A stretch of 64,000 nt of DNA from an uncultured virus (IMG/VR IMGVR_UViG_3300008003_000324) (IMGVR_UViG_3300008003_000324), one strand, 5' to 3'; numbered from the stretch's first letter, positions 4,282 through 61,869 are shown. The notes: generated by a model not told the origin, from the letters alone. Translations and numbers: made by a program.

Positions 4282-4353
4282 TTTTTTGTCTCGGATACTG
4301 TTTGTATTTATATATTATTCGGGTAGAATTAATAACAAAGTTATTTAACGATA

Positions 4354-5469
4354 TCATAAACTGAAATTTTTAAAAGCCTCGTTTTCTACTTTTTTGTCTA
4401 CTTCACCAACAAGATACGTTGATATCTCAACTTCCTGTGGGGCGTTTTGTGTTTCTCGGCCAGCTATCCACGATTCTGTCCACGATAGAGGATTGTCTCT
4501 AGGCACCACGTATGGACTACTCAACCCGATTCTTGTCATTCGTTTGTTTGCAATCCATTCTACATAATCTTTCAACAGTTGTGCGTTCAGTCCTAGCATA
4601 GACCCGTCTTTGAAGAGATAATCGGCCCATGCTTTTTCCTGATCTACAGCACTAATAAACATTTGGACACAATCTTCTTCGGTTTCGCTACGTATTTTTA
4701 TAAAATCTGGGTCATCTTTTTCTAAAGTATTCAGCAAGAATTGTGTGAACCCCAGATGCAAATTTTCGTCCCTGCAAATGAACTTTATTATTTTGGCATT
4801 CCCTTCCATCTTGTCCTGTTCAGCAAAAGCCCACGAACAAGCAAAGCTCACATAAAACCTGATCCCTTCCAAAATGTTGACGGCCATCAATGCCATCCAT
4901 AGGGCTTTTTTGTGTTCATATTTGCTGACTGGTGCGTCATACCCATTAACATCGACGTAGTTAGTGATAGCTATCAAATTATCATAATGTTTGCTGATGT
5001 CGGAGGCACATTCCAGAATTTCCGGTATGTTGTTTATTTCATCAAACACCATAGACGGGTTCGGCAATACGTTGCGGATAATGTGAGTGTACGATTGATT
5101 GTGAATACCTTCAACAAAGGACCACACCTCGATGAAAGATTCTATTTCCGGTAATGTTGTTATGGGAAGAAACGCTAGATTCGGTGATCTTCCTTGAACA
5201 GAGTCTAAGAGAATCTGTCTTTTCAAATTAGACAAAAATATATGTTTCTCGTGATCTGACAGGTCCCTAAAATCTTTGGCGTCTCTTGATATGTTAATTT
5301 CTTCTGGACGCCAAAAGAAACTAAGTTGTTTTTCATACATCTTAGTGGCTTTTGGATATTTAACGTCGTCATAACGAGCTATCGTTACCGAAGTATTTTG
5401 ATCATCCAAGAACATTGTACATTTCTTGTGAGACTTTTTGTTGTCTGGGTTATAAACGCTTTTAGTCAT
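4354..5469 (-). CDS. nrdB: ribonucleotide reductase class Ia beta subunit
   Basis: FFWRPEEI, RQILLDSVQGR, EGIHNQSY, LEGIRFYVSF, RDENLH, APQEVEISTY. Confidence 0.97.
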   Translation of the reverse strand: MTKSVYNPDNKKSHKKCTMFLDDQNTSVTIARYDDVKYPKATKMYEKQLSFFWRPEEINISRDAKDFRDLSDHEKHIFLSNLKRQILLDSVQGRSPNLAFLPITTLPEIESFIEVWSFVEGIHNQSYTHIIRNVLPNPSMVFDEINNIPEILECASDISKHYDNLIAITNYVDVNGYDAPVSKYEHKKALWMALMAVNILEGIRFYVSFACSWAFAEQDKMEGNAKIIKFICRDENLHLGFTQFLLNTLEKDDPDFIKIRSETEEDCVQMFISAVDQEKAWADYLFKDGSMLGLNAQLLKDYVEWIANKRMTRIGLSSPYVVPRDNPLSWTESWIAGRETQNAPQEVEISTYLVGEVDKKVENEAFKNFSL

Positions 5470-5491
5470 ATCTTTCCTTAGTTATTATACT

Positions 5492-6031
5492 TTATAATAT
5501 GCATGAAGAACAACCTTCTTCATCGTCAAGTTCCTCGGTCTTGGGCTCTAATACTACTTCGACTTCTTCCTTTTCTTCCCCGGCACCATCATAAGTATTG
5601 TGATAGTATAAGGTCTTGCCACCATATTTGTAAAACTCAAGGAGTTGCTTTAAAAGCTCCTGAAGAGGGACCTTATTGTCCGGATAGTTTTCTGGGTTGA
5701 TGCTGACATTTGCTGAAATAGTTTGGTCAACATACTTTTGTATAATGTTCATTATCCTCAAATAACCATCTGGTGACTTTTGTTCCCATAGAAGATCGTA
5801 CTTGTTCTTCAGGCGATAGATTTCAGGAACCACCTGTTTCATTTTGCCGTCCTTAGAACTTTTCTCGCTGATCAACCCTCTGGGCGGCTCTACGCCGTTG
5901 GTGGCATTAGCTAATTGTGAAGAAGTATTGTGACTTATCGATCCATTTGATAGGGCGTATTGTTCGGTATCCGTAGATATATCCCAAGTGTGTTCTACGC
6001 CCACATTTCGTTTTATGCTTTTAATTTTCAT
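5492..6031 (-). CDS. nrdA: NrdA piece 3: split-intein C-half (35 aa) plus C-terminal extein
   Basis: MKIKSIKR...TWDI...ISHN|TSSQLANATNGVEP...KTLYY...CSSC; GAGGA Shine-Dalgarno upstream. Confidence 0.93.
   Translation of the reverse strand: MKIKSIKRNVGVEHTWDISTDTEQYALSNGSISHNTSSQLANATNGVEPPRGLISEKSSKDGKMKQVVPEIYRLKNKYDLLWEQKSPDGYLRIMNIIQKYVDQTISANVSINPENYPDNKVPLQELLKQLLEFYKYGGKTLYYHNTYDGAGEEKEEVEVVLEPKTEELDDEEGCSSCIL
5927..6031 (-). mobile_element. split intein 2, C-half (+1 residue Thr)
   Basis: Block F/G motifs ending HN, followed by TSSQ. Confidence 0.9.
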
Positions 6032-7016
6032 TGTGTAATTCCTCTATTGTTATTGTACATTTTCCTTGTTTAGACAGATTTTCCTCCCAAGGAATAAATT
6101 CCAAATTCTTCTTGTCGCCTATAATTTCTGGCGGTATACCTTCTATAAATCCCCTAGATATAGAAAATTTGTGATCTAGATGGTATGCTCCATCCTCCCC
6201 AGCTTTTCCTCTAAGATAAAAATTCTTTAATTCAGATAGGTCATTTTGATTGGTATGCGACCATACTTCTCTTTTATAGGATTCATATTCTGTCAAGGAT
6301 TCATATGGCACCCAAATCCCAGAATCTTCCATGGTTTTCCTCAATTTTTTCATTCTAGCAGAAAATTCTTCGTCGGTTAGCTTTTTCTTAGAATTATGGC
6401 CCCTGACCTCTCGTATTTTTTCTTTTATCTCCACTTCAGTCATTTCTGTAGTTTTTTTCAAATATTCTGCATAAGAGTCTATTCCTTTCTTTTTGTCGTG
6501 TATTTTTCTTATATTCTTTTTCGCGTACTCCAATGATTTTCCGCGCTTAATGTAATACTCTACATGGAGTGGGCTATTTTCTCTTTGATATTCTTTCGCT
6601 TTTTCAATCGAAGTAGATTCATCCAAGCCCCGTTTCATGTAAAATTCCTTACAGCGCGGAGATTGTGCCCTTCCATTTTCTTTGGCCAATTCCCACCCAC
6701 TTCGTAAGGTTTTTTCTGCCCAAGACTCATATTTTTTTAGTCCTTCGACTTTGCCATATCTTTTTACAAAGTTGTCCTTAGATGTTGCTTTAGACCTTTT
6801 AAATTGTTCTATAGTTTTTTCTGCTTCTTCCAAAGAACAATTGTCTCGCTTCATTACATATTTCGGATCATATGGGTTGGCTTTTTTTATCTTCTTCCCT
6901 CTATTCCACGCATTCTTTTCTTTCAACAACCAAATAGTTTTTTCTGCTTCTTCCAAAGAACAATTGTCTCGCTTCATTACATATTTCGGATCATACGGAT
7001 TAAATTTTTTAGTCAT
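6021..7016 (-). CDS. free-standing HNH-like putative homing endonuclease in the second nrdA break
   Basis: C-terminal YHLDHKFSI..GF...IPPEIIG...NL..IPWEEN..K; basic repeated N-terminus. Start probably ATG 7016 (track: TTG 7043). Confidence 0.75.
   Translation of the reverse strand: MTKKFNPYDPKYVMKRDNCSLEEAEKTIWLLKEKNAWNRGKKIKKANPYDPKYVMKRDNCSLEEAEKTIEQFKRSKATSKDNFVKRYGKVEGLKKYESWAEKTLRSGWELAKENGRAQSPRCKEFYMKRGLDESTSIEKAKEYQRENSPLHVEYYIKRGKSLEYAKKNIRKIHDKKKGIDSYAEYLKKTTEMTEVEIKEKIREVRGHNSKKKLTDEEFSARMKKLRKTMEDSGIWVPYESLTEYESYKREVWSHTNQNDLSELKNFYLRGKAGEDGAYHLDHKFSISRGFIEGIPPEIIGDKKNLEFIPWEENLSKQGKCTITIEELHNEN
6811..6995. repeat. 62-bp perfect direct repeat (6811-6872 and 6934-6995)
   Basis: Encodes YDPKYVMKRDNCSLEEAEKTI twice, period 123 bp. 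Confidence 0.95.
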
Positions 7017-7067
7017 GCCAATACCCCCCCCCCGGTCTTCCAAGTTGGCGTTAATGCCGTTACTTTT

Positions 7068-8066
7068 TTATTTAGTATTAACGCTAACTACATTGTCATT
7101 TTCTCTTAAATCCTTGATCTCGATCCATTGGCTGCTTCCGCCCCTATCAACTAACAATCTATGATTTTCAGTGAACTTGTATGATGATCCGTCTTCAAAT
7201 TCTATTTCAATGATTTCTTTAGGTCCATTGTAATAAAACTCGTGAGCTATAGAGTCAGACAACTCTACGGGTTTCAGGAAAGAAAACCGTTGTCCAATCA
7301 TAAACGGGTTGCTATGAATGTCTTCTATGGAAATGTTTCCGTACTCTCGGATTAGTTTTTCGAGTGTTGTTTTAGAACCGTCTTTCATTAGTATCTCGTT
7401 GTCCAAGCTCTGGCATTCGCTAGGCATCAGAGCCATCAACGTAGCATTTCTAATACCATACTGTGCCATCTCGGATCGTAGACCTTCCCAGTCAAAGCGG
7501 GTCTTATGTGGTATGATCTCGTCTATTTCTTTCTTGCGGTTTTCCCAAGGGAACTGCCCTATCCCATATTTTGTTTCTGCCGAAAGTTCACAAGGACCTT
7601 GCTCTTTAGCAAGTTGTACAGAAGCTTTGGTCAAATAGAACGCCATTGCTTCCATGTATTCATCTACTGTCTCGAATGCAGACCCGTCATAACGCATATT
7701 ATTTTTGGCTAAAAAGTACGCCAAGTTTATAATTCCTATACCCAAAGTTCTAAATTCTTTTGTCGAAAGCTCTGCTTGTATGGCAGGAAAATCTTGGTAC
7801 GTTAATAGAGAGTCTAATGCCCTTACTGCTAACTCACATGGTTTTTCAAAATCTTCAGGCTTTTTGATATTTCCCCAATTTATAGCAGAGAGGGTGCATA
7901 AAGCTATTCTACCATTTTCGTCATTGACGCCCTCAAAAGGCGTTGTGGGCAAAGTTATCTCCGCACAGTTGTGTACTAGTATATTATTCGCATAAAAATT
8001 TGACGTATCTTTTACTGTAATGTCATAAACGGGTCTGGTTATTTTCTGTTTAGTTATTGTTAACAT
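7068..8066 (-). CDS. nrdA: NrdA piece 2: IntC1 (33 aa) + middle extein (184 aa) + IntN2 (115 aa)
   Basis: MLTITKQ...VYDITV...LVHN|CAEITLP...LCTLSAIN...RTLGIG...ALMPSE|CQSLDNE...KFTENHRLLV...; AAGGA Shine-Dalgarno. Confidence 0.93.
   Translation of the reverse strand: MLTITKQKITRPVYDITVKDTSNFYANNILVHNCAEITLPTTPFEGVNDENGRIALCTLSAINWGNIKKPEDFEKPCELAVRALDSLLTYQDFPAIQAELSTKEFRTLGIGIINLAYFLAKNNMRYDGSAFETVDEYMEAMAFYLTKASVQLAKEQGPCELSAETKYGIGQFPWENRKKEIDEIIPHKTRFDWEGLRSEMAQYGIRNATLMALMPSECQSLDNEILMKDGSKTTLEKLIREYGNISIEDIHSNPFMIGQRFSFLKPVELSDSIAHEFYYNGPKEIIEIEFEDGSSYKFTENHRLLVDRGGSSQWIEIKDLRENDNVVSVNTK
7071..7415 (-). mobile_element. split intein 2, N-half
   Basis: Starts with Cys after ALMPSE, block B TENH, ends at a stop with no HN. 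Confidence 0.88.
7968..8066 (-). mobile_element. split intein 1, C-half (+1 residue is the catalytic Cys)
   Basis: VYDITV..TSNFYANNILVHN|C. Confidence 0.92.
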
Positions 8067-8071
8067 TTGTA

Positions 8072-9001
8072 TTATTTCCTTTGTAGTGTGAATGATCCGT
8101 CCGGGTGGTAAAATCTTTTTTTTCCAAGACTACTTTCTCGTATCTGTTGTTTTTGTTGGGAAGATCGATAATAACGATCATATTCAAACTCTATCCCACG
8201 ATTATTGCATTCTTTACGTAGCGCTTCAATAAATTTTTTCCTAGACCCGTTCCAACGGTGCTTAGAAAAGTTTATTATGTAAATTAAATTTTTTTCTTCG
8301 CAGTACTTCTTGTACTCAGATTTTATAAACCTTCCATCGGAACAAGTCTTTATGTAATCTATAGTCTGTTCAAGGTACTCTTCGTTCTTTATATTGTGAG
8401 CATTAAAGTTTTTTAATCCCCGATTCCTTTTGCTCAAATATTCTTTTTGATCTTTTTTTAAACTTTTTCCTTTAGAATGGTGAACCCATTTTCCGCCCAG
8501 AACATTTTCGTGATTTACATCAACTGAGCCTATCATTTCTCCAGTGATGAAATCCTTGACAGGCATTTTTCCTCTCCTAGCTTCAGAAATTCTTGGGTGA
8601 CCGGAATTGTTGGCTTTGATAAATCTAGAAAAAGCTTCTCTTTGGTATTTAAACTTTTTCCTCAGTATTTTGTTAACATGAATATCTTCCAACTTTTTTC
8701 CAAAAAAGCCATTTAGCATTAGATTTACGGCACAAATATCATTATATTTCCCATAAACTTTATAACGCAAGTAGTGTATAAACAAGTGTTCTTCTGGTAA
8801 GAGGGACACGATGTTATCTTCACTGTCCATTCCTCCCTCTGATCTAGGAACTATATGATGTCTTTCAACATATAAATTATCAGAATTGAGCCTCAAATCC
8901 CTCGGGTTTCTTCGAATTATCCTAGTCTTAACATCAGTGTTAATAAAGTCTATAATGAAATTGTTATAGATTTTCTCGTAATTCATAGTCGGTAATGTCA
9001 T
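8072..9001 (-). CDS. free-standing HNH homing endonuclease (MobE-like) in the first nrdA break
   Basis: YVERHHIVPRSEGG.D...NIV.L..EEH...H..L..VY, as in T4-type Mob HNH enzymes. Confidence 0.88.
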   Translation of the reverse strand: MTLPTMNYEKIYNNFIIDFINTDVKTRIIRRNPRDLRLNSDNLYVERHHIVPRSEGGMDSEDNIVSLLPEEHLFIHYLRYKVYGKYNDICAVNLMLNGFFGKKLEDIHVNKILRKKFKYQREAFSRFIKANNSGHPRISEARRGKMPVKDFITGEMIGSVDVNHENVLGGKWVHHSKGKSLKKDQKEYLSKRNRGLKNFNAHNIKNEEYLEQTIDYIKTCSDGRFIKSEYKKYCEEKNLIYIINFSKHRWNGSRKKFIEALRKECNNRGIEFEYDRYYRSSQQKQQIRESSLGKKRFYHPDGSFTLQRK

Positions 9002-9017
9002 TTCCGTGTATCTTTAT

Positions 9018-10688
9018 TTAGTGTTTGGATATTGTATTGCCCATAAATATTTTAAGAACATCGTCTTCACGCAAGTTCTTAGCTTCAACATAGCCTCTGT
9101 TCATAGTAAATATTTTATGTTCACCAGTGCAGGTTACGGATTTTCCACTTTTTTCACACGTTATGGTGATAAGTTCTTCACTAATTCCGGTTTGTGCAAA
9201 ATCCGTTATTTCACTATATACTTCGGTACCGGTATTCAAATCATATGATTTCACTTTAACGCTTCTATGAGCAACCAGATACTTAGCCAAATCTTCTATT
9301 ATTATAGTTTCAAGGATTTCGTCATCCAGTAAGACATCTATCGTTGTATCCCCAACCACACACAAATTGCTCTGTTCTATAGGATGAAGTTTCGATATGA
9401 AAGACCCTTGTGTGTTACAATGATCGATATTTTGGATGTAGATACGACCCGTCGAGACTCTTTCATCCATTATCGTACCAAACACTTCTAGAGCCGGTAG
9501 ACTGTATTTCATTTTTATCTTTCTACTTCTCTCATATTTTTCGTATATTCTTTCAAATTCATCGTTATCTCCGGAATAGAATGCGTCCATCAAGTCTGGA
9601 ACCTCGTGGGGAGAAAAGAAAGTTATTTTCCCACCCTCTATCAACCTTTTATACGCCAATCTGTTTAATTGTACTCCGTAGTCCATATGTCTGATTCTAT
9701 TCTCTTCGACCCCTTTATTGTTTTTCAGAACAATAAGATTTTCAAACTCGTAATGAAAGAAAGGCCAATACACAGTCGCAGCACCTCCCCTAACCCCACC
9801 TTGACTACAACTTTTTAGCGCAGCATGAAAATATTTCAAGAAAGGAATGACCCCAGTGTGTTTGATCTCTCCGTTTCTAATCTCAGAACCAACTGCTCTG
9901 ATCCTACCAGCGTTTATGCCAATCCCTGCTTTACGTGAAACGTAATTTACGATAGAAGAAGCTGTTGCGTTTATACTGGAAAGTGAGTCACCAGAATTAA
10001 TTAATACACAAGAACTGAACTGTTTGGTAGGTGTTCTTACTCCCGCTAAAATCGGTGTAGGAACAGAAATGTCCCACTTACTCAAGGCATCGTAATATTC
10101 TTTTACGAACTTCATTCGAGTGTCTTCGGGATAGCCATGGAAAAGAGTTGCTGCAATTAGCATGTATGCCATCTGTGGTGTTTCGTAGTATTCTTTTGTT
10201 ACGCGGTTTTGGACAAGATATTTTCCTAAAAGTTGTTTCATTCCTGTGTAAGAAAATTCGAAATCCCGGTCATGTTTGATCATCTTGTCCATCTTGCGCC
10301 ACTCTTGATCATCATACCATTCAAGAAGTTCTTTCGTGTAATAGCCGGTTGCGACATTCTTCTCTACCAATTTTTTAATTGGCCACGGGGTAATCATACC
10401 GTATACTTCTTTCCTGAGATTAAAGTTAATCAATTTGGCTGCAACGTATTGATAATTTGGGGCGTCCTCAGATATTAAATCTGCCGCCGTTTTAGTCAAT
10501 GTAGAATGAATCTCGGTTGCCTTCATTCCATCAAAAAACTGTAACTGGCTTTTAATTGCGATGTCGGATACCGAAACACCGGTTACATCTTCGCAAGCCC
10601 ATGTCAATATTTTGTGTATCTTATCTAGGTCTAGGGGTTCTTTTCTTCCGTCTCGCTTTTCTACCAAAATTTCTTTTTTAGCGTTCAT
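9018..10688 (-). CDS. nrdA: NrdA piece 1: N-terminal extein (442 aa, ATP cone) + IntN1 (114 aa)
   Basis: VEKRDG ATP cone, TPTKQFSSCVL, SQGGVRGG, IEQSNL|CVVGDT...CTGEHKIFT.NRG; AGGAGA Shine-Dalgarno. Confidence 0.95.
   Translation of the reverse strand: MNAKKEILVEKRDGRKEPLDLDKIHKILTWACEDVTGVSVSDIAIKSQLQFFDGMKATEIHSTLTKTAADLISEDAPNYQYVAAKLINFNLRKEVYGMITPWPIKKLVEKNVATGYYTKELLEWYDDQEWRKMDKMIKHDRDFEFSYTGMKQLLGKYLVQNRVTKEYYETPQMAYMLIAATLFHGYPEDTRMKFVKEYYDALSKWDISVPTPILAGVRTPTKQFSSCVLINSGDSLSSINATASSIVNYVSRKAGIGINAGRIRAVGSEIRNGEIKHTGVIPFLKYFHAALKSCSQGGVRGGAATVYWPFFHYEFENLIVLKNNKGVEENRIRHMDYGVQLNRLAYKRLIEGGKITFFSPHEVPDLMDAFYSGDNDEFERIYEKYERSRKIKMKYSLPALEVFGTIMDERVSTGRIYIQNIDHCNTQGSFISKLHPIEQSNLCVVGDTTIDVLLDDEILETIIIEDLAKYLVAHRSVKVKSYDLNTGTEVYSEITDFAQTGISEELITITCEKSGKSVTCTGEHKIFTMNRGYVEAKNLREDDVLKIFMGNTISKH
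9021..9362 (-). mobile_element. split intein 1, N-half
   Basis: Block A CVVGDT, block B CTGEH, ends at a stop codon. Confidence 0.92.
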
Positions 10689-10781
10689 TCTTTCTCCTAA
10701 TTGTTGGGCGCTGGGTGATGATTATTTAGACCCGAAGGGGTCTTTCAAGAAATATTCTTTGAGTATCTTATACTTATGTCT

Positions 10782-11327
10782 TTACTTTTGCAAGAGTCGT
10801 ATCAACTCGTTGTAGCATGGGTATTTTTCGGAAGACACCGTGTAATAATACTGCATTCCATAAAAGATAATTTCTTTCTTGGATTTTAACGCATCGTTCA
10901 ATGACGTATTGTCTGAGGTGTATGCGTATTCGATTGAATCTTCCATCATTTCTAAAGCTTTTCCTTTGTCGACCAAATCTAATCCTAACAATTTGGTATA
11001 AGAGTATCGATACTCTTCGTGATCATTGATTCTAGGATTGAACAAAAATTTGAACCCGTTTTTCGGGAAGATGTAGTGTGTTTTCATCCCATCTTTTTCA
11101 CTATGAGGACCGTTGACGACTACTGAACGCATGTGAATGTTCCGATGCTCCTTTTGCAAAGCATCTCCGATAATGCGAATGAAACCAACTGGTTTTTTCT
11201 TATGGCGTACTTTAACTTTGCGAAAATATTTCCCATGGTCATCGAACGCTTTCAATGCTGGATATACGCTCGTGATAGAAAGAAAATCGGAGCATTCTTT
11301 TTTTATGTTTTCTATTATCTTGCTCAT
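10782..11327 (-). CDS. hypothetical protein
   Basis: Long ORF (track start 11366; ATG 11327 likely), CATAAATA upstream. Confidence 0.65.
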   Translation of the reverse strand: MSKIIENIKKECSDFLSITSVYPALKAFDDHGKYFRKVKVRHKKKPVGFIRIIGDALQKEHRNIHMRSVVVNGPHSEKDGMKTHYIFPKNGFKFLFNPRINDHEEYRYSYTKLLGLDLVDKGKALEMMEDSIEYAYTSDNTSLNDALKSKKEIIFYGMQYYYTVSSEKYPCYNELIRLLQK

Positions 11328-11459
11328 ATTGCCAATATAAATAATCTTGTCCAGTCTCAATGACAAAGTATAAAGACTTGCTTATTCAAAGAGAAGAGTG
11401 TGAGTTATATTTATGCGGCAAATACATAACATGATACTAAAGATAAATACTTTAAAGGC

Positions 11460-13100
11460 TTGAATATATTCATGGCAACTATAAAATATCAATGTGATAC
11501 CTGCAAGAGGGACATCGAACTTCTAGAAAACTCCAGAGGGTTGAACATGTTCAGCTCGTGTACAATAACCGAAGGTTGTAGGGGTAAAATGTATAAACTC
11601 TCTAGAAACGCTTACAATTTTCGCGAGGCTTTTCGAGAAGCGGACCCTGCTGGTAATCTTGAAAACTTTGCCCCTAGGAAAATATTTTTCAAGCATTACC
11701 AAAGCATTCTATCAGACAAATGGATAATTAAACACAACCTCAATACGCAACCGGTCGTCAAGGTTTTTCTGGAATCAGAAGATGGGACACAAATAGTGCC
11801 GGTGGGTTCTAATGTATTCAGCGTTATAAACAAATCTTCAAACGAACTAGAGATTGTTTTTAGTGGATCTTTCACCGGACAGGCTCATTTGATTGCCAGA
11901 AGTATTTCGGAAGACAGTATAGATACAATTCCAGATACAGAAAATCTCACCCAAATTTCTTACAACAACACGTTATCTTTTGCAGTCATATCCAGATATA
12001 GAACGCCATTTCGAGAAATATATACAAACGGTCCAATACAGTTGGACATTGTTCTGCAAGAACCGAATGAAGAGCCTATTTTTTGTGTCGAAACCTTATC
12101 TGGGTTAGAAGCTGGCTTGTCGCCTTGGAATGATTTTAGGTCAATTCTTTTCAGAAGAAGGCGAAACTTCAATGTGAAAACCAAAAACATAGCAGATTTT
12201 AGAGTTATAAAAGATCGCTATGAGTCATTACAAGACATTCCACAGTTGACTCGTCTAACAATCAAAGGAATAAATTTATTTCCTGATACGGAAACTTTTA
12301 GTGAAATAAAGTCTAAACAACTTTTGTTATTGTTAGCGAACAGTCCATATGACAAAGCAGATAAGAATTTGGGACAATTGATTGACATTGGCGAAATAGG
12401 ACAAAAATCGGAGAATACATCATTTGTGTTTGTGAATGGTGTTTTATATTCTGACCCATCCAACATTGAAGTCGTCTATCCAAAAATAGAAAAAGATGTT
12501 GTAGTGGCTCCGTTGCCGTCCAGCACCCCAACTCCTACAGTGTCTATTACATCGTCAACCGCGCCAACACCTACACCGACACCTACCCCTACAGTGACGC
12601 CTACAGTGACGCCTACAGTAACGCCTACAGTGACGCCTACAGTGACGCCTACACCTTCGGGCGTGTCTTTTTGTTGGGTAGGAGATACTACGGATTGGTC
12701 TGTTTTTGGGTCTGAGTCGAACCCGTATTTTGACGGAACCTGTTTTGTTTATGGTGAATTCGGTTCGTCAGTTTCAACTAACCCGATAGAATATTCCGGT
12801 TCGGGGGTTTCTTTGTCTCACGGTATAAGATTCGAACTGTTGTTGTCCGGACCGACACCCAATATTGACGTAGATATACAAATTAATGCTAATAGTCTAA
12901 TAGGACCAACTGTTGTTGACACAGTTGAACTAACAAACGGTGTTCCATTTGTATATGAATTAGATGAAACTTCTGGCCTGTTCGATGGTGTTTCTTCATT
13001 AGACCCCGCGTCTATATCAGTAAGCTACACGAGAATAGATAATTATGATGTCGTAACCATTTGTAATATTGAAGCTAGAAGCCAAGATTGTGCCCCTTAA
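11460..13100 (+). CDS. putative virion protein with Pro/Thr linker and C-terminal beta domain
   Basis: N-terminal CxxC, W.I.HNL...P.V.V motif, (PTVT)n linker, GATAAATA upstream. Start may be ATG 11472. Confidence 0.7.
   Translation: MNIFMATIKYQCDTCKRDIELLENSRGLNMFSSCTITEGCRGKMYKLSRNAYNFREAFREADPAGNLENFAPRKIFFKHYQSILSDKWIIKHNLNTQPVVKVFLESEDGTQIVPVGSNVFSVINKSSNELEIVFSGSFTGQAHLIARSISEDSIDTIPDTENLTQISYNNTLSFAVISRYRTPFREIYTNGPIQLDIVLQEPNEEPIFCVETLSGLEAGLSPWNDFRSILFRRRRNFNVKTKNIADFRVIKDRYESLQDIPQLTRLTIKGINLFPDTETFSEIKSKQLLLLLANSPYDKADKNLGQLIDIGEIGQKSENTSFVFVNGVLYSDPSNIEVVYPKIEKDVVVAPLPSSTPTPTVSITSSTAPTPTPTPTPTVTPTVTPTVTPTVTPTVTPTPSGVSFCWVGDTTDWSVFGSESNPYFDGTCFVYGEFGSSVSTNPIEYSGSGVSLSHGIRFELLLSGPTPNIDVDIQINANSLIGPTVVDTVELTNGVPFVYELDETSGLFDGVSSLDPASISVSYTRIDNYDVVTICNIEARSQDCAP
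12588..12653 (+). repeat. 12-bp tandem repeat (CCTACAGTGACG, about 5 copies) encoding PTVT
   Basis: Read directly from the sequence. Confidence 0.9.
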
Positions 13101-25849: not shown

Positions 25850-26800
25850 CTAAAATTCAATGAGTTCGTCCGCTAGTGTGTTTCTGCTGTTCGGCACAGC
25901 TTCGCCAATGGCATCTAATATGTTTTTAATGGGCTGGTCTACCAGAGATTTTATCTGGCGGTTTCTGTCAACATATGGAAGGAAATCTGTTAACCAATCT
26001 GGTCTAATTGTCATATCCGTTGGTAGTGCTATAGCATTAAACATTCCAAAGTTTTTCTTCTTGAGAAAATAAAACTTTTTAACTTTATCTCCGGATCGGA
26101 TAGGATACGATTCATGGTCCTCATAAGTTTTTAGGCACTCATTGTAAAGAATGGAAGCCCGGACCATGTGATACACTTTCTTCGGATCAGTTTTGAATAC
26201 CTGCGTACCCTCTTCGACATCGTTGACGCCGGAAGGAACCCCTATGTCAAAAATGTCCCCATCCCGCAAAGAATTCTTGTAGTCTACAATGTCCCTTTTG
26301 ATAACAATCCAACTTTCTCCCTTAAGAAATCTTTCGAAAAAATCCGTTAGTTTAATTCTAATGGCTTTGGGAATATTTGTCTTCTTGATCTGAAGACCCA
26401 TGACTTTCATTTTGTCAACCTCTTTACCATCTAATTCAACCAAGTGTAAAATGTAATGTTTCTTTTTGACAAATATTCCCCGGTCAGAAACAATTTCTTT
26501 TTCTGCGACGATGTAGTTCTCTCTACCACCAGTGCAGTTAAAAGCCTTTTTCATGTATTGAGGATAACTCTTATTGACCTTCTTACAAATTGCATCAGAT
26601 ACAGCAGATACCTCTTCCGCCGTGATGTCCTCTTCGCCTAAACCGGAATAGAAATAAACGCTATTGTGGACTAAAATGTCATTTGCCATAAAATATGGAA
26701 AGGCCGCATCCTTCATGACAACATCATAAACATATTGTTCTTCCGGATTATCAATTTTTGTTATATTTTTAATTTTTGATCTTATAATCTTCTTATCCAA
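25850..26800 (-). CDS. DNA polymerase B, C-terminal piece: split-intein C-half (46 aa) plus extein
   Basis: TTG at 26800 with AAGGAG 8 nt upstream; VYDVVM...FMANDILVHN|SVYF...KKKHY...KVMGLQIKK. Confidence 0.9.
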   Translation of the reverse strand: MDKKIIRSKIKNITKIDNPEEQYVYDVVMKDAAFPYFMANDILVHNSVYFYSGLGEEDITAEEVSAVSDAICKKVNKSYPQYMKKAFNCTGGRENYIVAEKEIVSDRGIFVKKKHYILHLVELDGKEVDKMKVMGLQIKKTNIPKAIRIKLTDFFERFLKGESWIVIKRDIVDYKNSLRDGDIFDIGVPSGVNDVEEGTQVFKTDPKKVYHMVRASILYNECLKTYEDHESYPIRSGDKVKKFYFLKKKNFGMFNAIALPTDMTIRPDWLTDFLPYVDRNRQIKSLVDQPIKNILDAIGEAVPNSRNTLADELIEF

Positions 26801-27188
26801 TCTACAGTCTCCTTTTATCAGTATCACGGTTGATAGTTATAAAAACATCATCATTTTTCAAGTCGTCGGGGGCTATTTCAATGAATTGACCGTCCCGCTC
26901 TACTACCAATGAGTGGTCTTCTGTCACTGTGACAATTTTTCCACATTCCAACTCAATGCGAAATAGTGGTTTACTTATTTTGTGTCTGTATATCGTAAGA
27001 ATTTCTTTATCAATTATTCTCTTAGTTTCTGGGTTGTAACATGGTGAATAATTGTTGTCTCCGTGCATCTTTATGATTTCTTTTTTGCCCTCCATATATG
27101 TACCGTATTTTGTCGAATGTTCTTTAAACCATTCTCCTACATTCTTAAATTCCCCATTGATTTCAATTACTGAAGATTCGACCACACT
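26663..27188 (-). mobile_element. split intein in PolB (IntN 26805-27188, IntC 26663-26800), no endonuclease
   Basis: YGDTD|SVVESS...VTEDHSLVV...stop; separate ORF ...HN|S. Confidence 0.9.
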
Positions 27189-28991
27189 ATCAGTATCACC
27201 ATAAAGTATTGATTTTGAAGGATATTTGTACTCTCCGTCTAAAATAAGAGCTATTTTTTTAGCCATATGCAATAGGATGTTCTTACCGGTCTTGGTTGTG
27301 GATTCTGCGAGTCTAACATCGAAAAATCTGAAATATTTGTTTCCGAATACCCCATAGAGAGAATTAAGCTGAATCTTTTTCAAGTATTGTATATTGTCGT
27401 AATACTCGGCTTCCTTCTTATATCGTTCTTCGTTGGTTTCTTGATGTTTCGCATAAGCGTCAACCTTTTTCTTTTGATATTCGATTCGCTCGTCGAACCA
27501 CTTCGTCAAGATACAGGGTATGACCCCGTCTTTAGCCTGATCAAAAATTGTCCCATGGCCACTTATTGCCCAGTTACGCTTCTCTAGAGCATTTCTCCAT
27601 TCTGAGGCAGTCATGGTCTCATCATTTCCATCTTCGTAGAGCAGGGTAAGATGTATATCTCCCGATTTTTCTTGAATGTATTCAAACGCTTTTTCGTTTT
27701 CGAAGAATTGACCTATTATTGTTTCGGGTGAAATGTTGATGGCCCTCATACTAGATGGATATAGAGATTTAATGTCTACAGATGCAATCCATTCGTGTAG
27801 ACCTATTTGTGGATCTAATACGAAAGCACCTTCAAACTTTGTACCATCATCAAATACATCATAAGGAGCATCCGGCAACACAAGCCTTTTGTCCTGCTCG
27901 TGTTTGCAGAAATTTAGAATAGCTGTGTCGGACGTACTAGTTGTTCCCAAAACCGCTGGAATATTATTGGTTGTCATATGAGAAAAGTTCAAAGCTAGGT
28001 CCATATACTTGAACTTCAAGTCAAGATGTTTCAAAATGTCTGTATCTCGAATGTTGTATCGTAAAAACTCGTCAAAATCTTCGTGATACAATCTATACAG
28101 AGATTTGTCGTAACTCAACTTCTGAAACCCATCTAGAGATTCTTCAGCAACGGATTCCAAAGAATAAGAATCACGTTCGCTCGCATCAAATTTCTTAACC
28201 ATCTCCATGAAGTCTATCCAAATTCTCCCATGAGGTTTAACCACCATTTCCATTGTGCCGAATTTCTCGCGTTCGTCCACACGAACATCCAAATCGGACT
28301 CTGGAAAGTTCATCAACCTCGTATATTTTTTACCCAAGACTTTCATGGTTCTACTATAGATGTATGGGTCATCGAACCAGTCACTGTTCCAACCGCTAAC
28401 GACATCACTGTCTTCTATCTCTTGATAAAAACGCGTCAACAATTCTTTTTCGTTAGATAGTAATTCAATCTTGGAATGATCAAATAAGTCTCTAGGAAGT
28501 TCGTCTAGTTGGACCTTAGACCATTCGCCCGTCTTCGGTCTTAATGCAAGGACGATAGATTCGTCAGTGTGTTTATGGTATAGAGCGATAGAACTTATTC
28601 TAGCATACGGGTTGTCGGGTCTAGAATGACCCCTCTCTGGGTCGTAATCAACCTCAATGTCATAGAAAGTTACATGAAGATCCCCGTCAAGGGGACTATT
28701 GTAATAGTTGTCACTCAAAACTTTGAGTTCGGGAGAAATATCAGATTCGTATATCTTTATTTCCGCTTCTCTCAATCTCTTCCTGCCGCCATAGAAATCA
28801 TAATGGCTCGTAAACTCTATCTTTTCTAGTTTTTTTCCTGTAACGGAATAACATTCTTGGTCAGAATCTTCGTTCTCTACAAAAAATTCATATGGGGCAT
28901 CGTAATATACAGCGACCCTCTTACCGTCTGGGCCTCTTTCCCAAACAATAACGTTTTTTCGGTCTTCTGTTAGTTGCGTAGAAAGATACAT
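26802..28991 (-). CDS. DNA polymerase B, N-terminal piece (exonuclease and palm) + IntN (128 aa)
   Basis: FYDIEV, GWNS.WFD, DIKSLYPS, KIQLNSLYG, YGDTD. Confidence 0.95.
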   Translation of the reverse strand: MYLSTQLTEDRKNVIVWERGPDGKRVAVYYDAPYEFFVENEDSDQECYSVTGKKLEKIEFTSHYDFYGGRKRLREAEIKIYESDISPELKVLSDNYYNSPLDGDLHVTFYDIEVDYDPERGHSRPDNPYARISSIALYHKHTDESIVLALRPKTGEWSKVQLDELPRDLFDHSKIELLSNEKELLTRFYQEIEDSDVVSGWNSDWFDDPYIYSRTMKVLGKKYTRLMNFPESDLDVRVDEREKFGTMEMVVKPHGRIWIDFMEMVKKFDASERDSYSLESVAEESLDGFQKLSYDKSLYRLYHEDFDEFLRYNIRDTDILKHLDLKFKYMDLALNFSHMTTNNIPAVLGTTSTSDTAILNFCKHEQDKRLVLPDAPYDVFDDGTKFEGAFVLDPQIGLHEWIASVDIKSLYPSSMRAINISPETIIGQFFENEKAFEYIQEKSGDIHLTLLYEDGNDETMTASEWRNALEKRNWAISGHGTIFDQAKDGVIPCILTKWFDERIEYQKKKVDAYAKHQETNEERYKKEAEYYDNIQYLKKIQLNSLYGVFGNKYFRFFDVRLAESTTKTGKNILLHMAKKIALILDGEYKYPSKSILYGDTDSVVESSVIEINGEFKNVGEWFKEHSTKYGTYMEGKKEIIKMHGDNNYSPCYNPETKRIIDKEILTIYRHKISKPLFRIELECGKIVTVTEDHSLVVERDGQFIEIAPDDLKNDDVFITINRDTDKRRL

Positions 28992-39082: not shown

Positions 39083-42000
39083 TTATGGTATGATATCAGA
39101 CGTTAAAATTTCAATAGAGCACAATGTTATTTCACCTGAAAACGCAAATCCAAGAATATCAATATTAGCACCAGTACCTATAATTCCAGATAGTCCGGTA
39201 TATTCAAATATCTGGGGAACGCCATCCACCAATTCCATTGCTTGATACCCCGCCCCACCCGATATCGCATCAAAAGTCACTTGTGTGTCACCCGACACAC
39301 CGCCTGTACCCGATGATGTTAATGTAAATCTAACACCCTGAATGTTAATGTTTTCATATGCAGGATTGATAACTATGTTCATACTATTGAACCCTTCAAA
39401 ACTTTTCGTCCAACATGGGTTGGTGTATACCGTTGGGGTCTGTCCGTCACCCGTAGTTGGATCACCAGTCCAATATGTATCAGGCGTAATATCTACCCAG
39501 ATTGGTACGGATGCAGCCGACGGGGTTGGGGTGGGTGATAGTATTGGTGTAACACTTGGTGTAACACTTGGTGTAACACTTGGTGTAACACTCACGGTTG
39601 GGGTGGGGGTAGGAGTTGGTGGTGGTGGTACGTCTACAGCACACTCTAATTCACTACCAACCACTTTAACAATTTCCAGCGTCTCACCTTCTAAAATAGT
39701 ACCCGCATTTCCAACATCTACGGCCACCCACGAAGTCTTGAAAAAGTCCGGGTGCTTTTTCTTAGCAATCATAGAATTTTCCAGAATCTCAAAAAAGATG
39801 TCATTGACTTCTTTCACGGTGAACAGAGCATATATCGCTCTGAGTAGCTGTACGTATCCCTCTGGTACCGTTAGATCATAAGATTCGTAGAACGCTTCTA
39901 TATCACCAACAGACCATTTTCTGTTCGGTTCAAACAGCACCTGAGTAATAAGTTTTCTTAGGATGTCTCTATCAACTAAAGTTTGCTCTCTACCCAGTCC
40001 AATTCGTGTAGAAGCGCCGCGCACTAATACATCGTATCTGACTCTTTCTTCAGACGGAACCGGGACTCTCTCGTCAATGTTGAACAATTCGTCCACAACT
40101 TCAAATCCGGTAGTACTTTCAACCACTTTTCTCCAAAGAATAAAATCGATTTTAGAAGTTTGGTTCTTTCTAATAAGTTTCCAATCTACGTGTTTGTTCT
40201 TTTTTTCTAAATCAAGACCCAGATCATCTCTTAATGTAAAATCTTTCCGAAGTCTTAGTACATAATCAGAGTTATTCTTAACGCTGTTTGCCAAACCTTT
40301 GATGATAAGTTGAGAGAATCGCAATGGTAGATTGTTGTCGTCGGGGTCGTAGGTTGCCCCGAACAACACACCATAACCATCACCCTCCTCACGGAATCCT
40401 TCAATAACGGCGTAGGGTTTGGTCATATCTGAGAGTTCACGCTCCGCGTCAAAAAGAGTAAGTGTAGTATTATTCAACAACTTCTGTGATTTGTCACCTC
40501 TAACCCAAAAGTAATACTTTGATTTTATATCACCGCTCACGCGGTCTATGTAGTCTATCTTACTGTGGGGATGTACCCGGATATAATCACCATTATCAAT
40601 TTCCTCTTCGCTAGGGACAACAGCTTCCTTTACCAACGTAATTATTGAATTGTCGGGGATATCAAGCCCGAAGGTTTCTGCTAATGCGAGCGTGGCCAAA
40701 AATACGTCATAGGAAACATAATTAAACCTTAAGGTAAATTTTCCATTAACGTACAGGTCAAGAAATTGTTCAGGTGTGAAATCTTCCAAATCTGACGATT
40801 CTATCCCGGCCTTGGGGAAACTTCTTACAATGGTTTTTTCTTCTTCCCACCGGGCTTGTCCCGCTCCGGGATTTACTACTTTTTTATAAACCACAGATTT
40901 TGGATTTCCTGTCAACTTTTCCCCCAGTGGTATATTTTCTAGAGACTGTTTCTCTACTTCGTTAATATAATCCTCTGGTGAGAAATCACTTTCTGTCCAG
41001 CGATACATTTCTATTTCTCCGTAATCTGCTAAATTGCCCCACTTCAGACTGCGCTCTTCTTGATTTGGAAAAATGAATTTGTCGTAGTAAGGAACGTATC
41101 CTTTTTTGGTTATATCCAGCCAAACTTTTCCTATCTGTTTTTCTTCCCAAAAACTTTCTCTCTTGATAAACGCGCCACTGGAAGAATTAACATCAAAATC
41201 CAAAGTATACGAGGCTGGATCTTTTTCTAGCTTAAAATCTATTGGATAATTTCCTACTGGGTTTTCTTGTCCAAAAGCCGGGTTCCATATAGGAATATCG
41301 GCAACCACCCGTTCCTCACGTTTGTTATCTATCAACTTGAAAATGTTAGTACTGTCGTATGAATACCTCAACCCAGTAACAGTAATATTCTGCCACACCT
41401 CGATGTTTGTAGCAATGAATTCTATGACTAACCCGTTTATAAATCTATAATCCACACCTTCGCTGGCAATGAATTTTTCATCAGAAATTTCATACTCGAT
41501 CTTAGCACCATAAACAGGGACGTTCAATCGTAAAACCGGATTATTGGTAATACTTGTGATCGTTGACGTTTGTATTAGATTTTCAGCATTCGTGAATATT
41601 TCAGTTTCTTCAACATCTAAGAAATAACCCTTGAACGGCTTCATTAGATCCACAACATCTGGAAGATTTTCCCAACGGTTAAAATCAGTTAGTCGAATAG
41701 GAATATAGTCCTTTCCGATAGTTCCGCCAGTTGGTGGAACAAATTCAAGTCGAAGTTCCTTTCTAATTACGTCATCCGTATTGAGTTTTATCTCAGGGTA
41801 GGCTTTTTTCTTAGAATCCCCAAACTCACATAGTTTATATGCCCAGAACTCATCAACTGTTACTCCGGTTAATGCACGTTGATTTGTAAAAGCCTCAAGT
41901 GAAAAATTTGTACCCTTGTTTTGTACAAAAGATTTCCAAAATACAAACTGTGACTTTTCGTTAATACCCAAGTTTTCCATATACTGTTTTGGTCCCTGAT

Positions 42001-45000
42001 ACCCCACGGACCTTCTGACTGCCTCTGTAGTATCATCACCCCTAATGTTGTTGTATACATCGTAATAGTCTCTTATATCTTGTATCGATTTTTCGATGTT
42101 ATCTATTAAGGAGTTGTCACTCAAAACCAAACCCCCCACATGGAGTCTTCCCGTGGGTTCTGTCGGCCTCAGAAAACTTAAAAACACCCTAGGGGTTTTG
42201 ATTCCTAAAAAGGGATCATATATTAACTTGTTACCGCTAGTGTACTGATTAAACCTGCAAATGTGCGACACCTCGAAAATAGAATAATCCGCACCCGCAA
42301 TCTTATTTTCGCTGTTCTGTGTTAACAAAACGCTTGTTTCTCTGTCATTCCTGAAAAATAATAAATTTTCTAAGTCGATGTATTCTCCATTAACATCCAA
42401 AACATTTTGTCTTTCGAATAACCCGTTTCTGGCCCTCTCAAAACTCGAAGGTAACCCTCTATCGTGGCTCACAACAAAATGGTTGTAATATGGATTGGTC
42501 ATCATTTTAGGAAGAACTTTGTCACTTTTGAAAATTTCCAAATACACTTCCCCGGAGCCGGTAGAAAACTCTATAAACCTTCCGGCAGTGGCGTCGTTTT
42601 TGGAATATGCCAACTGAATAGCACCAGACCTAGTAACAATAGCGTAGTATGGTACAAACGCATTAAATGGACTGTTTAATTCTTCCGGCACCGTTCCACC
42701 CTCACCCGCTTTCAACCTTACGGCCTGTCCAGTCGCCAAGAACTGTCCAGAAGGACTGATAAAAGAGCTAGAATCAACGTTTACCGTTGCAGATATTCTC
42801 GGGGGGAGTTCTTCTGCTCTCTGTATTAGAGTGTCTAGCCACACAATATACTTTTCAATTTCCAAAATCCATTCATTGTCTCTTCCACTGTCTTCGGCTT
42901 TATTGGTCTTGTCAAAAGGAACTGACTTAATACCGCGATCTTCCAGCAGAGCTTCATAACCAAAGAGAATATCTATGAGAGATTGTATTCTGGTTACGTT
43001 TTGAGCTTCAAAGAGGGTTTTAACGAGGCGAGTGTCTGGTTCATGTCTTCTGAATGCATAGTCTATTCTGTTCAACGGTTTAAACGTGTTTGTGACTTTT
43101 CCGACCCAGAAGTTACCAGAACCCGCAGTGGCAAAATTTATAACAGTTCCCAATTTTGCTAGGTCTTCACTCTCTGAAATCTGGAATGTTGTACCGTTAA
43201 TCTTTACGATATAATAGGGAATATAATTCAGTAGTTCTCCCGGTAGTACCCCGTCTGTGTTTAAAAATACCTCTTGCCCGGTTTCCCACGGGATTGTTAT
43301 GGTATTTTCTGGGCTTACAATTCCGTCTACGATGTCGTCAGTTATAACAACATCTTCCAAGACTTTAACTAGAGTCTCGTTTCTTCTAAAATCGTATATT
43401 ACGTCGTCAACTGTATACGTCCCACCATAGTTGGTAGAAGAAGAGACCGTTATCTGGTCACCAGCCGAAAACTCTCCCAAAACGTTGCCATAAACATAGA
43501 ATATTTTTTTGAACTCGAAATCAGTTATGCCGTCCTCAGACACTAAGCCCGAAGATATTACGGGAAAAAGGCTGTCTAGGCTAATGCTTATTGAAGAACC
43601 GAGACCCGTGGCCTCGCTGCGGATGATCAAATATCCGTTTTCTAAATCGATAAAGGCACCACTTATTTGATCATTGATACTGGCGATAACGTCACCAACT
43701 GTCGGAGTATTGGGAGAGAGTGACCCGTCTATGGTGACAACAGTAGACGTTGTGCCGTCGATATCAATAGTAAACTGGTATGGCCCTGCCGTTAACCCAG
43801 TAACATCCGTCAACGCTAAAGGTGAAGAATATATAGCTCTCCAAAAGCCTCTAGGTGAGTCTATTTCTGTGGCCTTGATTTGATACCCACCGGTTGTAAA
43901 AGTATTTGTTCCCACCAATCTAACTTGGTAATTTTGTGGTGGATAATATTCTATAGTTTTCTTCTTTTTAGGACTTTTAATATATGGTTTGAAAACCCAG
44001 TTGCTTGTTTCGTAATGAGTTCTTTCCGTGATTGGGGCTCTTTTTTGGACCGCCCAATTTATCGCGGAGAATGTATTTTCGGTCGAGTTTAGCTGGCGAT
44101 CAATGAATGTCGCATAATCTCTAGCAACTATGTCGATCTGGTCCCCCGAAACACCTAATGTAGTGTCGTTGATCAGAGTGTTAAAAATGTATGCTGCGTT
44201 TACATTCCAACCAATCCATAAATCCCTATAGTCAGAAGATCCCCCGTCTAACTCCAGATATCTATTGTAATTAACGATCCACTGCTGTATACCCGCAGAA
44301 TAATAAACCGTGCCATCTTCTCTGTAGTCTCCGTGGAATAGAGTTTTAAAATGTGGATTTATATTTTGGGTTTCTTTGTTAGCAAGCAAGCAATCTACTT
44401 GTACCAAATCATCACCATAGTTTCTGCTAAAAAATTCTATTGGATCACACAAAAAAGACGCCTTGAGCAAGAAATATAAGTAGCTACTACTATTTTTCCA
44501 TTTCCACTCAACTGGACCATCTTGTCCAAAAAGAAAATCCGCATTTGGAGAAGATACATAATTGCCAAGACTCTTGTCGAATAGTGGTTTAAAGCGGGGG
44601 TCTGCCGATAGCGAACCATCCCAATATGGTGGTGCCAGTTCATCACTAGCAATACCCGCCACGGTACTTCCGGTTACGTTAACGGGAGAGTAATCGTAAA
44701 TTTGAGTTTCTCCACTGTTGCCAGTAGAAATAGTTCCATTTGGTAATTCTTGTCCGGCTGGGACGACTCCAGTGAATATGTTATCCCACATAGTTTCTTT
44801 CCAGAATCGATCTATTCCTAAATCGTTATTCTTGTATGTGGTCTTCCACCATGTGGGCTCTTCTTCATAACCTTGCAAGATCCAAGGTTCTCGGTGGGGA
44901 TATGCTGTTCCATATATTTCTTCATACAATCCCTGCCACGATGCCTTTCCCCTAGCAGAAAAAACTCCGGAAAGTGGATGTGTTGCTATGTCGGTATTGG

Positions 45001-61800: not shown

Positions 61801-61869
61801 AATAAGGTACAATATACAGGTACACCCAAATAGGTACAGACAAATGAACTACAAACAAATAGGTTGAAT

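Follow-up and report, generated by a model that had tools for sequence, protein, structure and literature searches.

The window analysed here, a stretch of 64,000 nucleotides (nt) from an uncultured virus (IMG/VR IMGVR_UViG_3300008003_000324), carries nrdA, the gene for the alpha subunit of ribonucleotide reductase (RNR), in three separate pieces with intein halves at the breaks. According to the list of open reading frames (ORFs) of the window, five co-oriented minus-strand genes lie within 5492-10688 and are followed by nrdB. In the direction of reading these are P1 (9018-10688, an ORF of 556 amino acids (aa)), which encodes NrdA residues 1-442 and an N-terminal intein half, IntN1; HEG1 (8072-9001, 309 aa), an HNH homing endonuclease gene in the first gap; P2 (7068-8066, an ORF of 332 aa), which encodes a C-terminal intein half (IntC1), 184 aa of NrdA and another N-terminal half (IntN2); HEG2 (6021-7016, 331 aa from the ATG at 7016), a nuclease-like gene in the second gap; and P3 (5492-6031, an ORF of 179 aa), which encodes IntC2 and 144 aa of NrdA. 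An intact small-subunit gene, nrdB (4354-5469, minus strand; PF00268, E 8e-56), lies directly downstream of P3. The pieces all stand on the minus strand in N-to-C order, as in the fractured genes of Dassa et al. 2009 (PMC2677866). An earlier reading of this DNA, hereafter the original prediction, had not spelled out that both gaps (8072-9001 and 6021-7043) are occupied.

All extein parts and intein halves lie on the minus strand. The P1 extein (9363-10688) holds the ATP-cone, the all-alpha domain and the beginning of the barrel (PF03477, PF00317, PF02867) and runs into IntN1 (9018-9362), 114 aa and a stop, which starts CVVGDTT and has Cys1 and a block B TGEH. IntC1 (7968-8066, 33 aa) ends ..ILVHN and is followed by a +1 Cys, equivalent to Cys439 of Escherichia coli NrdA. 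The P2 extein (7416-7967, 184 aa) corresponds to E. coli residues 439-623 by PDB alignment and PF02867, and leads into IntN2 (7068-7415), 115 aa and a stop, which starts CQSLDNE and has Cys1 and a block B FTENH. IntC2 (5927-6031, 35 aa) contains HTWDIST, a block F-like motif, and ends ..SISHN before a +1 Thr, and the P3 extein (5492-5926, 144 aa and a stop) corresponds to E. coli 624 to the end and closes with CSSCIL. With these computed boundaries the extein parts add up to 770 aa (442 + 184 + 144). The original prediction had described nrdA as three ORFs, each with its own stop and Shine-Dalgarno sequence, had given segments of 442+IntN1, IntC1+184+IntN2 and IntC2+144, and had expected a 770-aa class Ia NrdA with a C-terminal CxxC; the ORF list, the Shine-Dalgarno-like motifs upstream, the boundaries and the C-terminal residues agree with it throughout.

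These motifs are AGGAG five bases ahead of the ATG of P1, and AAGGAA for P2 and GAGGA for P3, each of which falls within the 3'-terminal part of the preceding endonuclease gene. A consensus scan for promoters and terminators did no better than on shuffled sequences (28 promoter-like hits against 23.6 expected; 4 terminator-like hits against 4.3 expected). RNA folds upstream of HEG1 and HEG2 had z values of 0.19 and -1.20, so that a hairpin masking the ribosome-binding site is unsupported.

P1, P2 and P3 are collinear with an uninterrupted NrdA. The RNR barrel profile PF02867 is covered at positions 1-212 by P1, 206-394 by P2 and 390-523 by P3, and the NCBIfam profile NF006578 at 2-440, 438-626 and 604-749, with scores of 682 + 223 + 178 bits (the cut-off for one chain is 813). 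In PDB alignments to E. coli NrdA, P1 residues 5-444 fall on 3-440 (E 8e-175), P2 residues 33-220 on 438-626 (E 2.5e-52) and P3 on 608-745 (E 6e-43), with P3 residues 36-157 on 624-745. The pieces tile the E. coli protein with no gap and no overlap; break 1 lies directly before Cys439 and break 2 between Glu623 and Thr624 in E. coli numbering. The Pfam barrel coverage and the PDB alignments together indicate that the junctions QSNL|CAEI and ALMPSE|TSSQ, where the bar marks the point of joining, are correct. Moreover, the closest IMG/VR contigs (L007-L009) have a single uninterrupted nrdA ORF that is 62-81% identical over the three extein parts and joins the flanking residues directly at both junctions (..SNL|CxEITLPT and ..MPSE|[ST]SSQ). 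Alignment to E. coli NrdA and the uninterrupted relatives thus bear out the same two junctions as originally proposed, together with the claim that the thiyl-radical Cys is the +1 residue of the first intein.

All catalytic residues of RNR are kept, and the extein parts are free of frameshifts and internal stops. P1 has Cys227 (E. coli Cys225) and Asn441 (Asn437); P2 has Cys34 (Cys439), Glu36 (Glu441) and Cys57 (Cys462); and P3 has Tyr142/Tyr143 (Tyr730/Tyr731) and the C-terminal Cys pair CSSC. The class Ia architecture is therefore complete, with ATP-cone, all-alpha domain, ten-stranded barrel and the catalytic residue set, and the partner NrdB (4354-5469) is encoded next door.

The intein halves are fused in frame on both sides of each break. 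When the four halves were scored with intein hidden Markov models (HMMs), as the original prediction had proposed, three came out above the NCBIfam cut-offs and the fourth did not. TIGR01445 (intein_Nterm) matches IntN1 at P1 443-528 (26.2 bits, cut-off 24.5) and IntN2 at P2 220-306 (26.7 bits, cut-off 24.5), and TIGR01443 (intein_Cterm) matches IntC1 at P2 12-34 (32.6 bits, cut-off 15.6). The Pfam intein profile PF14890 matches IntN1 (E 3.7e-8) and IntN2 (E 3e-5) when each segment is taken alone, and its positions 126-155 are covered by IntC1 (E 2e-7); IntN1 also matches the NrdJ-1 intein in the PDB (E 6e-5). IntC2 had no match among the NCBIfam and PF14890 models tried, and its assignment as an intein half is proposed from motifs and from collinearity with contiguous homologues. 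Four natural proteins (P0003, P0049, P0055 and P0057) start with IntC1, continue with the same extein and carry a contiguous mini-intein at site 2; the first part of the mini-intein aligns with IntN2, and its last part, ..MKIKKIIRNVAIEHTWDISTDTETYLLSNGVVSHN|TSAQ.., is collinear with IntC2 of the window. A model of P0003, with contiguous intein 2, had a mean predicted local distance difference test (pLDDT) score of 79.6, and its Foldseek matches were mostly RNR chains, with the intein domain not confirmed separately. A PDB profile search with the multiple alignment added no intein match except one weak polymerase row.

The residues expected of canonical class 1 inteins are present in both elements: Cys1, TGEH, terminal HN and +1 Cys in intein 1, and Cys1, TENH, terminal HN and +1 Thr in intein 2. 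C218, F298, T299 and H302 of IntN2, and T15, W16, D17, S33, H34 and N35 of IntC2, are invariant in 37 sequences. One other delimitation was considered and rejected. Were intein 1 to start one residue later (SNLC|V..), it would have no nucleophile at position 1 and would leave an extra residue between Cys439 and Glu441. Short tails devoid of intein motifs, of the type known from Aeromonas phage Aeh1, do not describe the ends found here, which are intein halves of 114/33 and 115/35 aa with all splicing residues.

HEG1 belongs to phrog_655, a homing endonuclease family (E 3e-28), scores 22 bits with the HNH profile PF01844 (cut-off 21.4) and has the motif ERHHIVPRSEGG..N..EEH. It starts 16 nt past the stop of P1 and ends 5 nt before the start of P2, and its homologues occupy the same gap in nine related loci (L013, L014, L016-L019, L100, L132 and L135). 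HEG2 is preceded by 51 nt, and its 3' end overlaps the start of P3 by 11 nt; homologues occupy the same gap in seven loci (L001, L006, L020, L087, L088, L091 and L095). It belongs to phrog_5104 (function unknown; E 8.5e-20) and matched no Pfam family and no NCBIfam model. D281, H282, N304 and N313, within the motif ..AYHLDHK..N..N.., are invariant in 45 homologues. Its AlphaFold model (pLDDT 90.9) has an elongated helical N-terminal part made of DNA-binding-like repeats and a small C-terminal beta-beta-alpha-like unit that is HNH-like. Foldseek returned no match to this model at E<=0.001; the best structural match, a weak one, was the Gme HNH nickase (Z 4.5, 70 residues aligned, root-mean-square deviation 5.6), and other low-scoring matches were the Cas9 HNH domain (Z 2-2.6) and I-HmuI (Z 2.0). 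From these features we infer that HEG2 is probably an HNH-type homing endonuclease. Its C-terminal quarter, the putative nuclease domain, is shared by many proteins (P0283-P0360) in which it follows one or another helix-turn-helix domain and which are labelled 'transposase-like' at their source. A modular build is typical of homing endonucleases, and the domain sharing of HEG2 fits it. Both gap genes are predicted to have endonuclease activity.

The stretch is present in 24 sequencing runs of 21 studies, from aquifer (2017), cold spring (2019) and hot springs (2025) metagenomes. We compared it with Logan contigs of X1, X6, X19 and X24, runs from four different studies. The contigs cover 6966-10800 and 5400-6840, and every stop is kept in all 4 runs. 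The X1 and X6 contigs are identical to the window except for a G run in X6, and both runs may be the window's own source. X19 represents a variant population in which 16 of the 18 variant codons in P1 and P3 are synonymous, which indicates purifying selection on the exteins. A search of 5400-10800 against GenBank phages with megablast found no match.

The sole indel in these contigs concerns a run of G just upstream of the HEG2 ATG (7024-7033, minus strand), which is non-coding: the window and X1 have 10 G, the X6 and X19 contigs 11 (one letter behind 7023). The leader of the endonuclease gene may hold a tract of variable length here, or the difference may be a homopolymer sequencing error. 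The HEG2 ORF is open back to a TTG at 7043, which was rejected as its start: the extra G in two samples would break its frame with the rest of the gene. ATG 7016 is the likely start because the 11-G variant puts the upstream TTG out of frame. At the beginning of HEG2 a 23-aa motif (NPYDPKYVMKRDNCSLEEAEKTI, twice) is duplicated in tandem (window ~6813-7001, minus strand), and the contigs break between 6840 and 6966, where this repeat lies.

The three-piece layout recurs in relatives. A search of metagenome protein clusters with P2 gave 1369 proteins at E<=1e-10, the best 120 of which were classed by segment BLAST and motifs. The middle piece of the window, IntC1-extein-IntN2, occurs in 27 of these 120 clusters, the window's own among them. 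The junction is HN|CxEI in 20 of the 27 and HN|CEI in 7; in the latter the partner N-piece ends ..SNLC and the intein is placed one residue further on. HN|C is found in 27/27 of the double-split middle pieces, the Cys1 of IntN2 in 27/27 and FTxxH in 26/27. Some 53 more of the best 120 clusters run from IntC1 and the extein to the C-terminus, a single fracture of the Dassa type, 4 combine IntC1 with a contiguous intein 2, and 7 or 8 run through site 1 without a break and have IntN2 at their end. In another class, of 19, an acidic tail of ~25-40 aa replaces IntC1 and the Cys439 region and IntN2 is kept. These acidic-tail relatives (P0016, P0018, P0026, P0029 and 15 more, and locus L091), with sequences such as ..WLYEVVEN..DDEYVYVDE.., look like a combination of an Aeh1-type non-splicing break and a splicing break in one gene. 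At the other end of the protein, IntC2 stands at the start of 39 of the best 120 of 234 hits to P3, with HN followed by Thr (38) or Ser (1).

A wider sample of representatives at 50% identity gave 3350 hits at E<=0.001, of which only the best 150 were classed. Neither site is interrupted in 52 of these, and both are split in 10, with 4 more probable. Site 1 alone is split in 11 and site 2 alone in 13; site 1 alone is contiguous or long in 18, site 2 alone contiguous in 6, and both are contiguous in 5. A split site 1 goes with a contiguous site 2 in 4, and a contiguous site 1 with a split site 2 in 2; the others of the 150 fell into none of these classes. Every combination of absent, contiguous and split is accordingly found at the two sites among these 150. 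The site-2 cassette occurs alone, with a HEG2 homologue, in L006, L020, L091, L095 and Klebsiella phage phiKp_21 (L088); L013-L019 and 7 more loci have the site-1 cassette only, several of them with a HEG1 homologue. Both split inteins are present in L001, L087, L089 and L090. Since each cassette occurs alone or together with the other in relatives, the two are mobile units independent of each other, and they have come together in one gene more than once.

Two of the loci with both split inteins are GenBank phages. Campylobacter phage vB_CjeM_WX1 (L087, OP654737) is annotated with three coding sequences for the alpha subunit. In Klebsiella phage KP13-7 (L001) a GIY-YIG gene stands at site 1 instead, and nrdA is interrupted once more by a group I intron bearing an HNH ORF (L001 2856-3552; RF00028, 43.3 bits, under the gathering score of 50, E 2e-9). 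PhiKp_21 is without KP13-7's intron and GIY-YIG cassette and has only the site-2 cassette, and thus two phages of one genus (Alcyoneusvirus) differ in these elements; their pieces are annotated as hypothetical proteins or nrdA_1/nrdA_2. The other two loci, in IMG/VR contigs of 101 kb (L089, 3867-7941) and 251 kb (L090, 2237-6311), have both split inteins and at least two further interruptions of nrdA, one inside extein 1 and one after ~11 residues of extein 2, with only a remnant of HEG2. A survey of related phages, which the original prediction had called for, hence finds the same layout in metagenome clusters and in vB_CjeM_WX1 and KP13-7. Its view that such an arrangement is much rarer than single fractures and has no characterised natural case holds as regards characterisation; rarity does not hold, given 27 of the best 120 clusters and two cultured phages in GenBank.

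We consider it very likely, on the gene sequences, that two orthogonal protein trans-splicing reactions yield the 770-aa NrdA. IntN1 on P1 would associate with IntC1 on P2, and IntN2 on P2 with IntC2 on P3, and each reconstituted canonical class 1 intein would excise itself. The first reaction would join ..QSNL to CAEI.., with the thiyl-radical Cys439 as its +1 nucleophile, the second would join ..ALMPSE to TSSQ.., and the 770-aa product would partner the NrdB encoded next to it. Intein 1 and intein 2 differ from each other and would have to be orthogonal: P2 has an IntC at its head and an IntN at its tail, and therefore a cross-reaction would cyclise or concatenate it. The N halves of intein 1 and intein 2 are identical at 34 of 97 aligned positions (35%) and the C halves at 9 of 32 (28%), and this low identity fits the putative need for orthogonality. 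Each break would have arisen from a mobile cassette, made of a split intein and a free-standing homing endonuclease gene in the gap, and the locus would represent two independent Dassa-type fractured-gene events stacked in one gene.

Several observations weigh against this interpretation. Trans-splicing is predicted here from the gene sequences, and 0 of the 24 runs that carry the stretch are RNA. The orthogonality of the two inteins is predicted from their low identity, and charge alone fails to explain specific pairing, since both N halves have a net charge of -8 and the C halves only +2 and 0. PF14890 on the whole of P1 stays under the Pfam gathering score (31.5 against 35.8 bits), the intein models are silent on IntC2, and the nuclease assignment of HEG2 is weak at Z 4.5. 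Finally, the split NrdA of phage Aeh1 works without splicing, and covalent joining is therefore not strictly required for RNR.

The last point leads to the main rival explanation, namely that the three chains form a non-covalent alpha subunit in which the intein halves act only as docking domains, as in NrdA-a/NrdA-b of Aeh1. The Aeh1 enzyme is described as fully active without splicing, and its tails have been proposed as possible split-intein remnants (Crona et al. 2011, PMC3045599). The 19 acidic-tail clusters among the best 120, which lack the Cys439 region and keep IntN2, moreover imply that tail-type, non-splicing solutions exist in the same gene family. We nevertheless regard a docked three-chain enzyme as unlikely in the window. 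Docking alone would need no conserved Cys1, TxxH, terminal Asn or +1 nucleophiles, yet the splicing residues are all present and are invariant or nearly so in relatives, and the active-site loop is interrupted by break 1 right at its thiyl-radical Cys. That the gene is instead decaying, broken by selfish elements in a phage that relies on the reductase of its host, is how Dwivedi et al. 2013 (PMC3653736) read the multiply interrupted nrdA of Campylobacter phages, as degenerating, and in phage CP21 (L086) the C-terminal part and a HEG2-like gene do stand in shifted frames. For the window we find decay very unlikely: the exteins are intact in frame, with every catalytic residue in place and 62-81% identity to uninterrupted relatives, the variant codons in X19 are mostly synonymous (16/18), nrdB is intact and each piece has a Shine-Dalgarno-like motif.

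Breaks that are mere errors of assembly or sequencing, or that are mended at the RNA level by intron splicing or by translational bypass of the endonuclease genes, are extremely unlikely and already largely refuted. Nothing speaks for such a route beyond its being a general possibility; one relative, KP13-7, does carry a group I intron elsewhere in nrdA. Both ways of undoing the proposal had been foreseen in the original prediction, and neither found support. The same stops recur in contigs of 4 runs from 4 studies, two of which may be the source of the window, and the same layout recurs in distant phages. An Rfam scan of 4300-11500 gave no family at E<=1, hence neither a group I nor a group II intron, which leaves the intron route unsupported, and RNA joining would not explain full-length conserved gap genes flanked by intein halves. 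Tandem trans-splicing thus stays our preferred explanation of the locus.

Genes 'fractured in two' by split inteins with a free-standing endonuclease were described by Dassa et al. 2009 (PMC2677866) for NrdA-1 to NrdA-7, gp41-1, NrdJ-1 and IMPDH-1. As reported there, the seven NrdA loci are broken directly N-terminal to the thiyl-radical Cys, the 3' end of the endonuclease gene overlaps the IntC gene (6-69 base pairs in 15 loci) and a non-coding stretch of 27-51 nt precedes the endonuclease. The window resembles these loci in that its context is a phage, its pieces are co-oriented, intein halves flank each break and an endonuclease gene fills the gap; its break 1 is at the identical point of NrdA. 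As to spacing, HEG2 overlaps the IntC2 gene, as in many of those loci (11 nt, with 51 nt before HEG2); the corresponding values around HEG1 are a gap of 5 nt to P2 and 16 nt ahead of HEG1. The window differs in having two different cassettes and three pieces instead of one cassette and two pieces, in its second site, E623|T624, which is not among the fractured NrdA loci described in that paper, and in its endonucleases, HNH for HEG1 and an unnamed HNH-like family for HEG2, where that paper describes GIY-YIG or Vsr-like enzymes. Judged by gene layout, each break corresponds to the fractured-gene definition given there, with a tentative nuclease identity for HEG2.

The nrdA-a/mobE/nrdA-b 'genes in pieces' of Aeromonas phage Aeh1 (Crona et al. 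2011, PMC3045599) are similar insofar as an HNH endonuclease gene divides a phage nrdA there too, and the pieces, translated separately, must come together again. In the Aeh1 case as described there are short tails, no splicing and one break, whereas the window has complete split inteins and two breaks. Campylobacter phages IBB_35, CPt10 and CP220 have nrdA genes with several inteins (PMC3322345, PMC3653736). In the account of IBB_35 the gene is 'interrupted by two inteins', a wording in which the split halves are not recognised, and the gene is presented in these papers as degenerating or as having two inteins, whereas we read the window as two split inteins and three polypeptides. The inteins of these phages lie at the same two nrdA sites, CPt10 having a split intein at site 1 and a contiguous one at site 2, and vB_CjeM_WX1 has the same three-piece layout as the window. 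The Campylobacter phage exteins are only 36-37% identical to those of the window, however, and their site-1 intein stands one residue further on (SNLC|C...HN|CEI).

Tandem trans-splicing with orthogonal split inteins has been engineered (PMC7210297, PMC7090010, PMC12707363), and the designs reported share with the window the use of three segments and two split inteins, with a middle segment that has an IntC head and an IntN tail. Those are laboratory constructs, whereas the arrangement in the window is natural, conserved and part of an essential phage enzyme. The split dnaE of Trichodesmium, with one split and two contiguous inteins, likewise has several inteins in one gene, one of them split; it is a cellular gene with a single split intein and two polypeptides, unlike the phage gene with two split inteins discussed here. 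In a search of open-access papers and bioRxiv, two split inteins on one protein were found only as an engineering design, and natural fractured genes only with a single fracture (Dassa et al. 2009).

Further inteins occur elsewhere in the window. A family B (T4 gp43-like) DNA polymerase (25850-28991, minus strand) is encoded by two genes with a third split intein and no endonuclease gene in between. The N-piece (26802-28991) has YGDTD at the end of its extein, then an intein half with Ser as its first residue (residues 637-727 match PF14890). A TTG at 26800, one base past the stop and behind AAAGGAG, is the probable start of the C-piece, whose intein half ends ..ILVHN|SVYF, so that the YGDTDS motif is restored. 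A helicase gene (61864-63999, plus strand, open at its 3' end) has a full-size contiguous intein at residues 66-417 with a LAGLIDADG endonuclease domain (PF05203, PF14528, PF05204). Together with those in nrdA this makes four inteins in 64 kb. The window also holds a single ORF of 3223 aa (39083-48754, minus strand) between tail sheath and baseplate genes.

We think it likely that the nrdA locus is a case of natural, evolved tandem trans-splicing, and that with the split intein of the polymerase three orthogonal splicing reactions lie behind DNA synthesis of the phage. If so, the phage carries a ready-made, co-evolved set of three orthogonal split inteins. Ligation of three segments in tandem calls for split inteins that are fast and mutually orthogonal, and more of them from metagenomes are asked for in the review literature (e.g. 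PMC11766414). Natural pairs of this kind must coexist on one middle fragment, and therefore evolution would have pre-selected them for orthogonality; with dozens of variants of the split-intein pairs in public data, the layout is a recurrent natural source of orthogonal pairs. The finding also bears on annotation, as such pieces are called hypothetical proteins, nrdA_1/nrdA_2 or pseudogenes in deposited phage genomes.

In conclusion, the two intein hot spots of RNR cycle independently through empty, contiguous-intein and split-intein states, and the locus shows to what extent an essential gene can be broken up by selfish homing cassettes and still survive.

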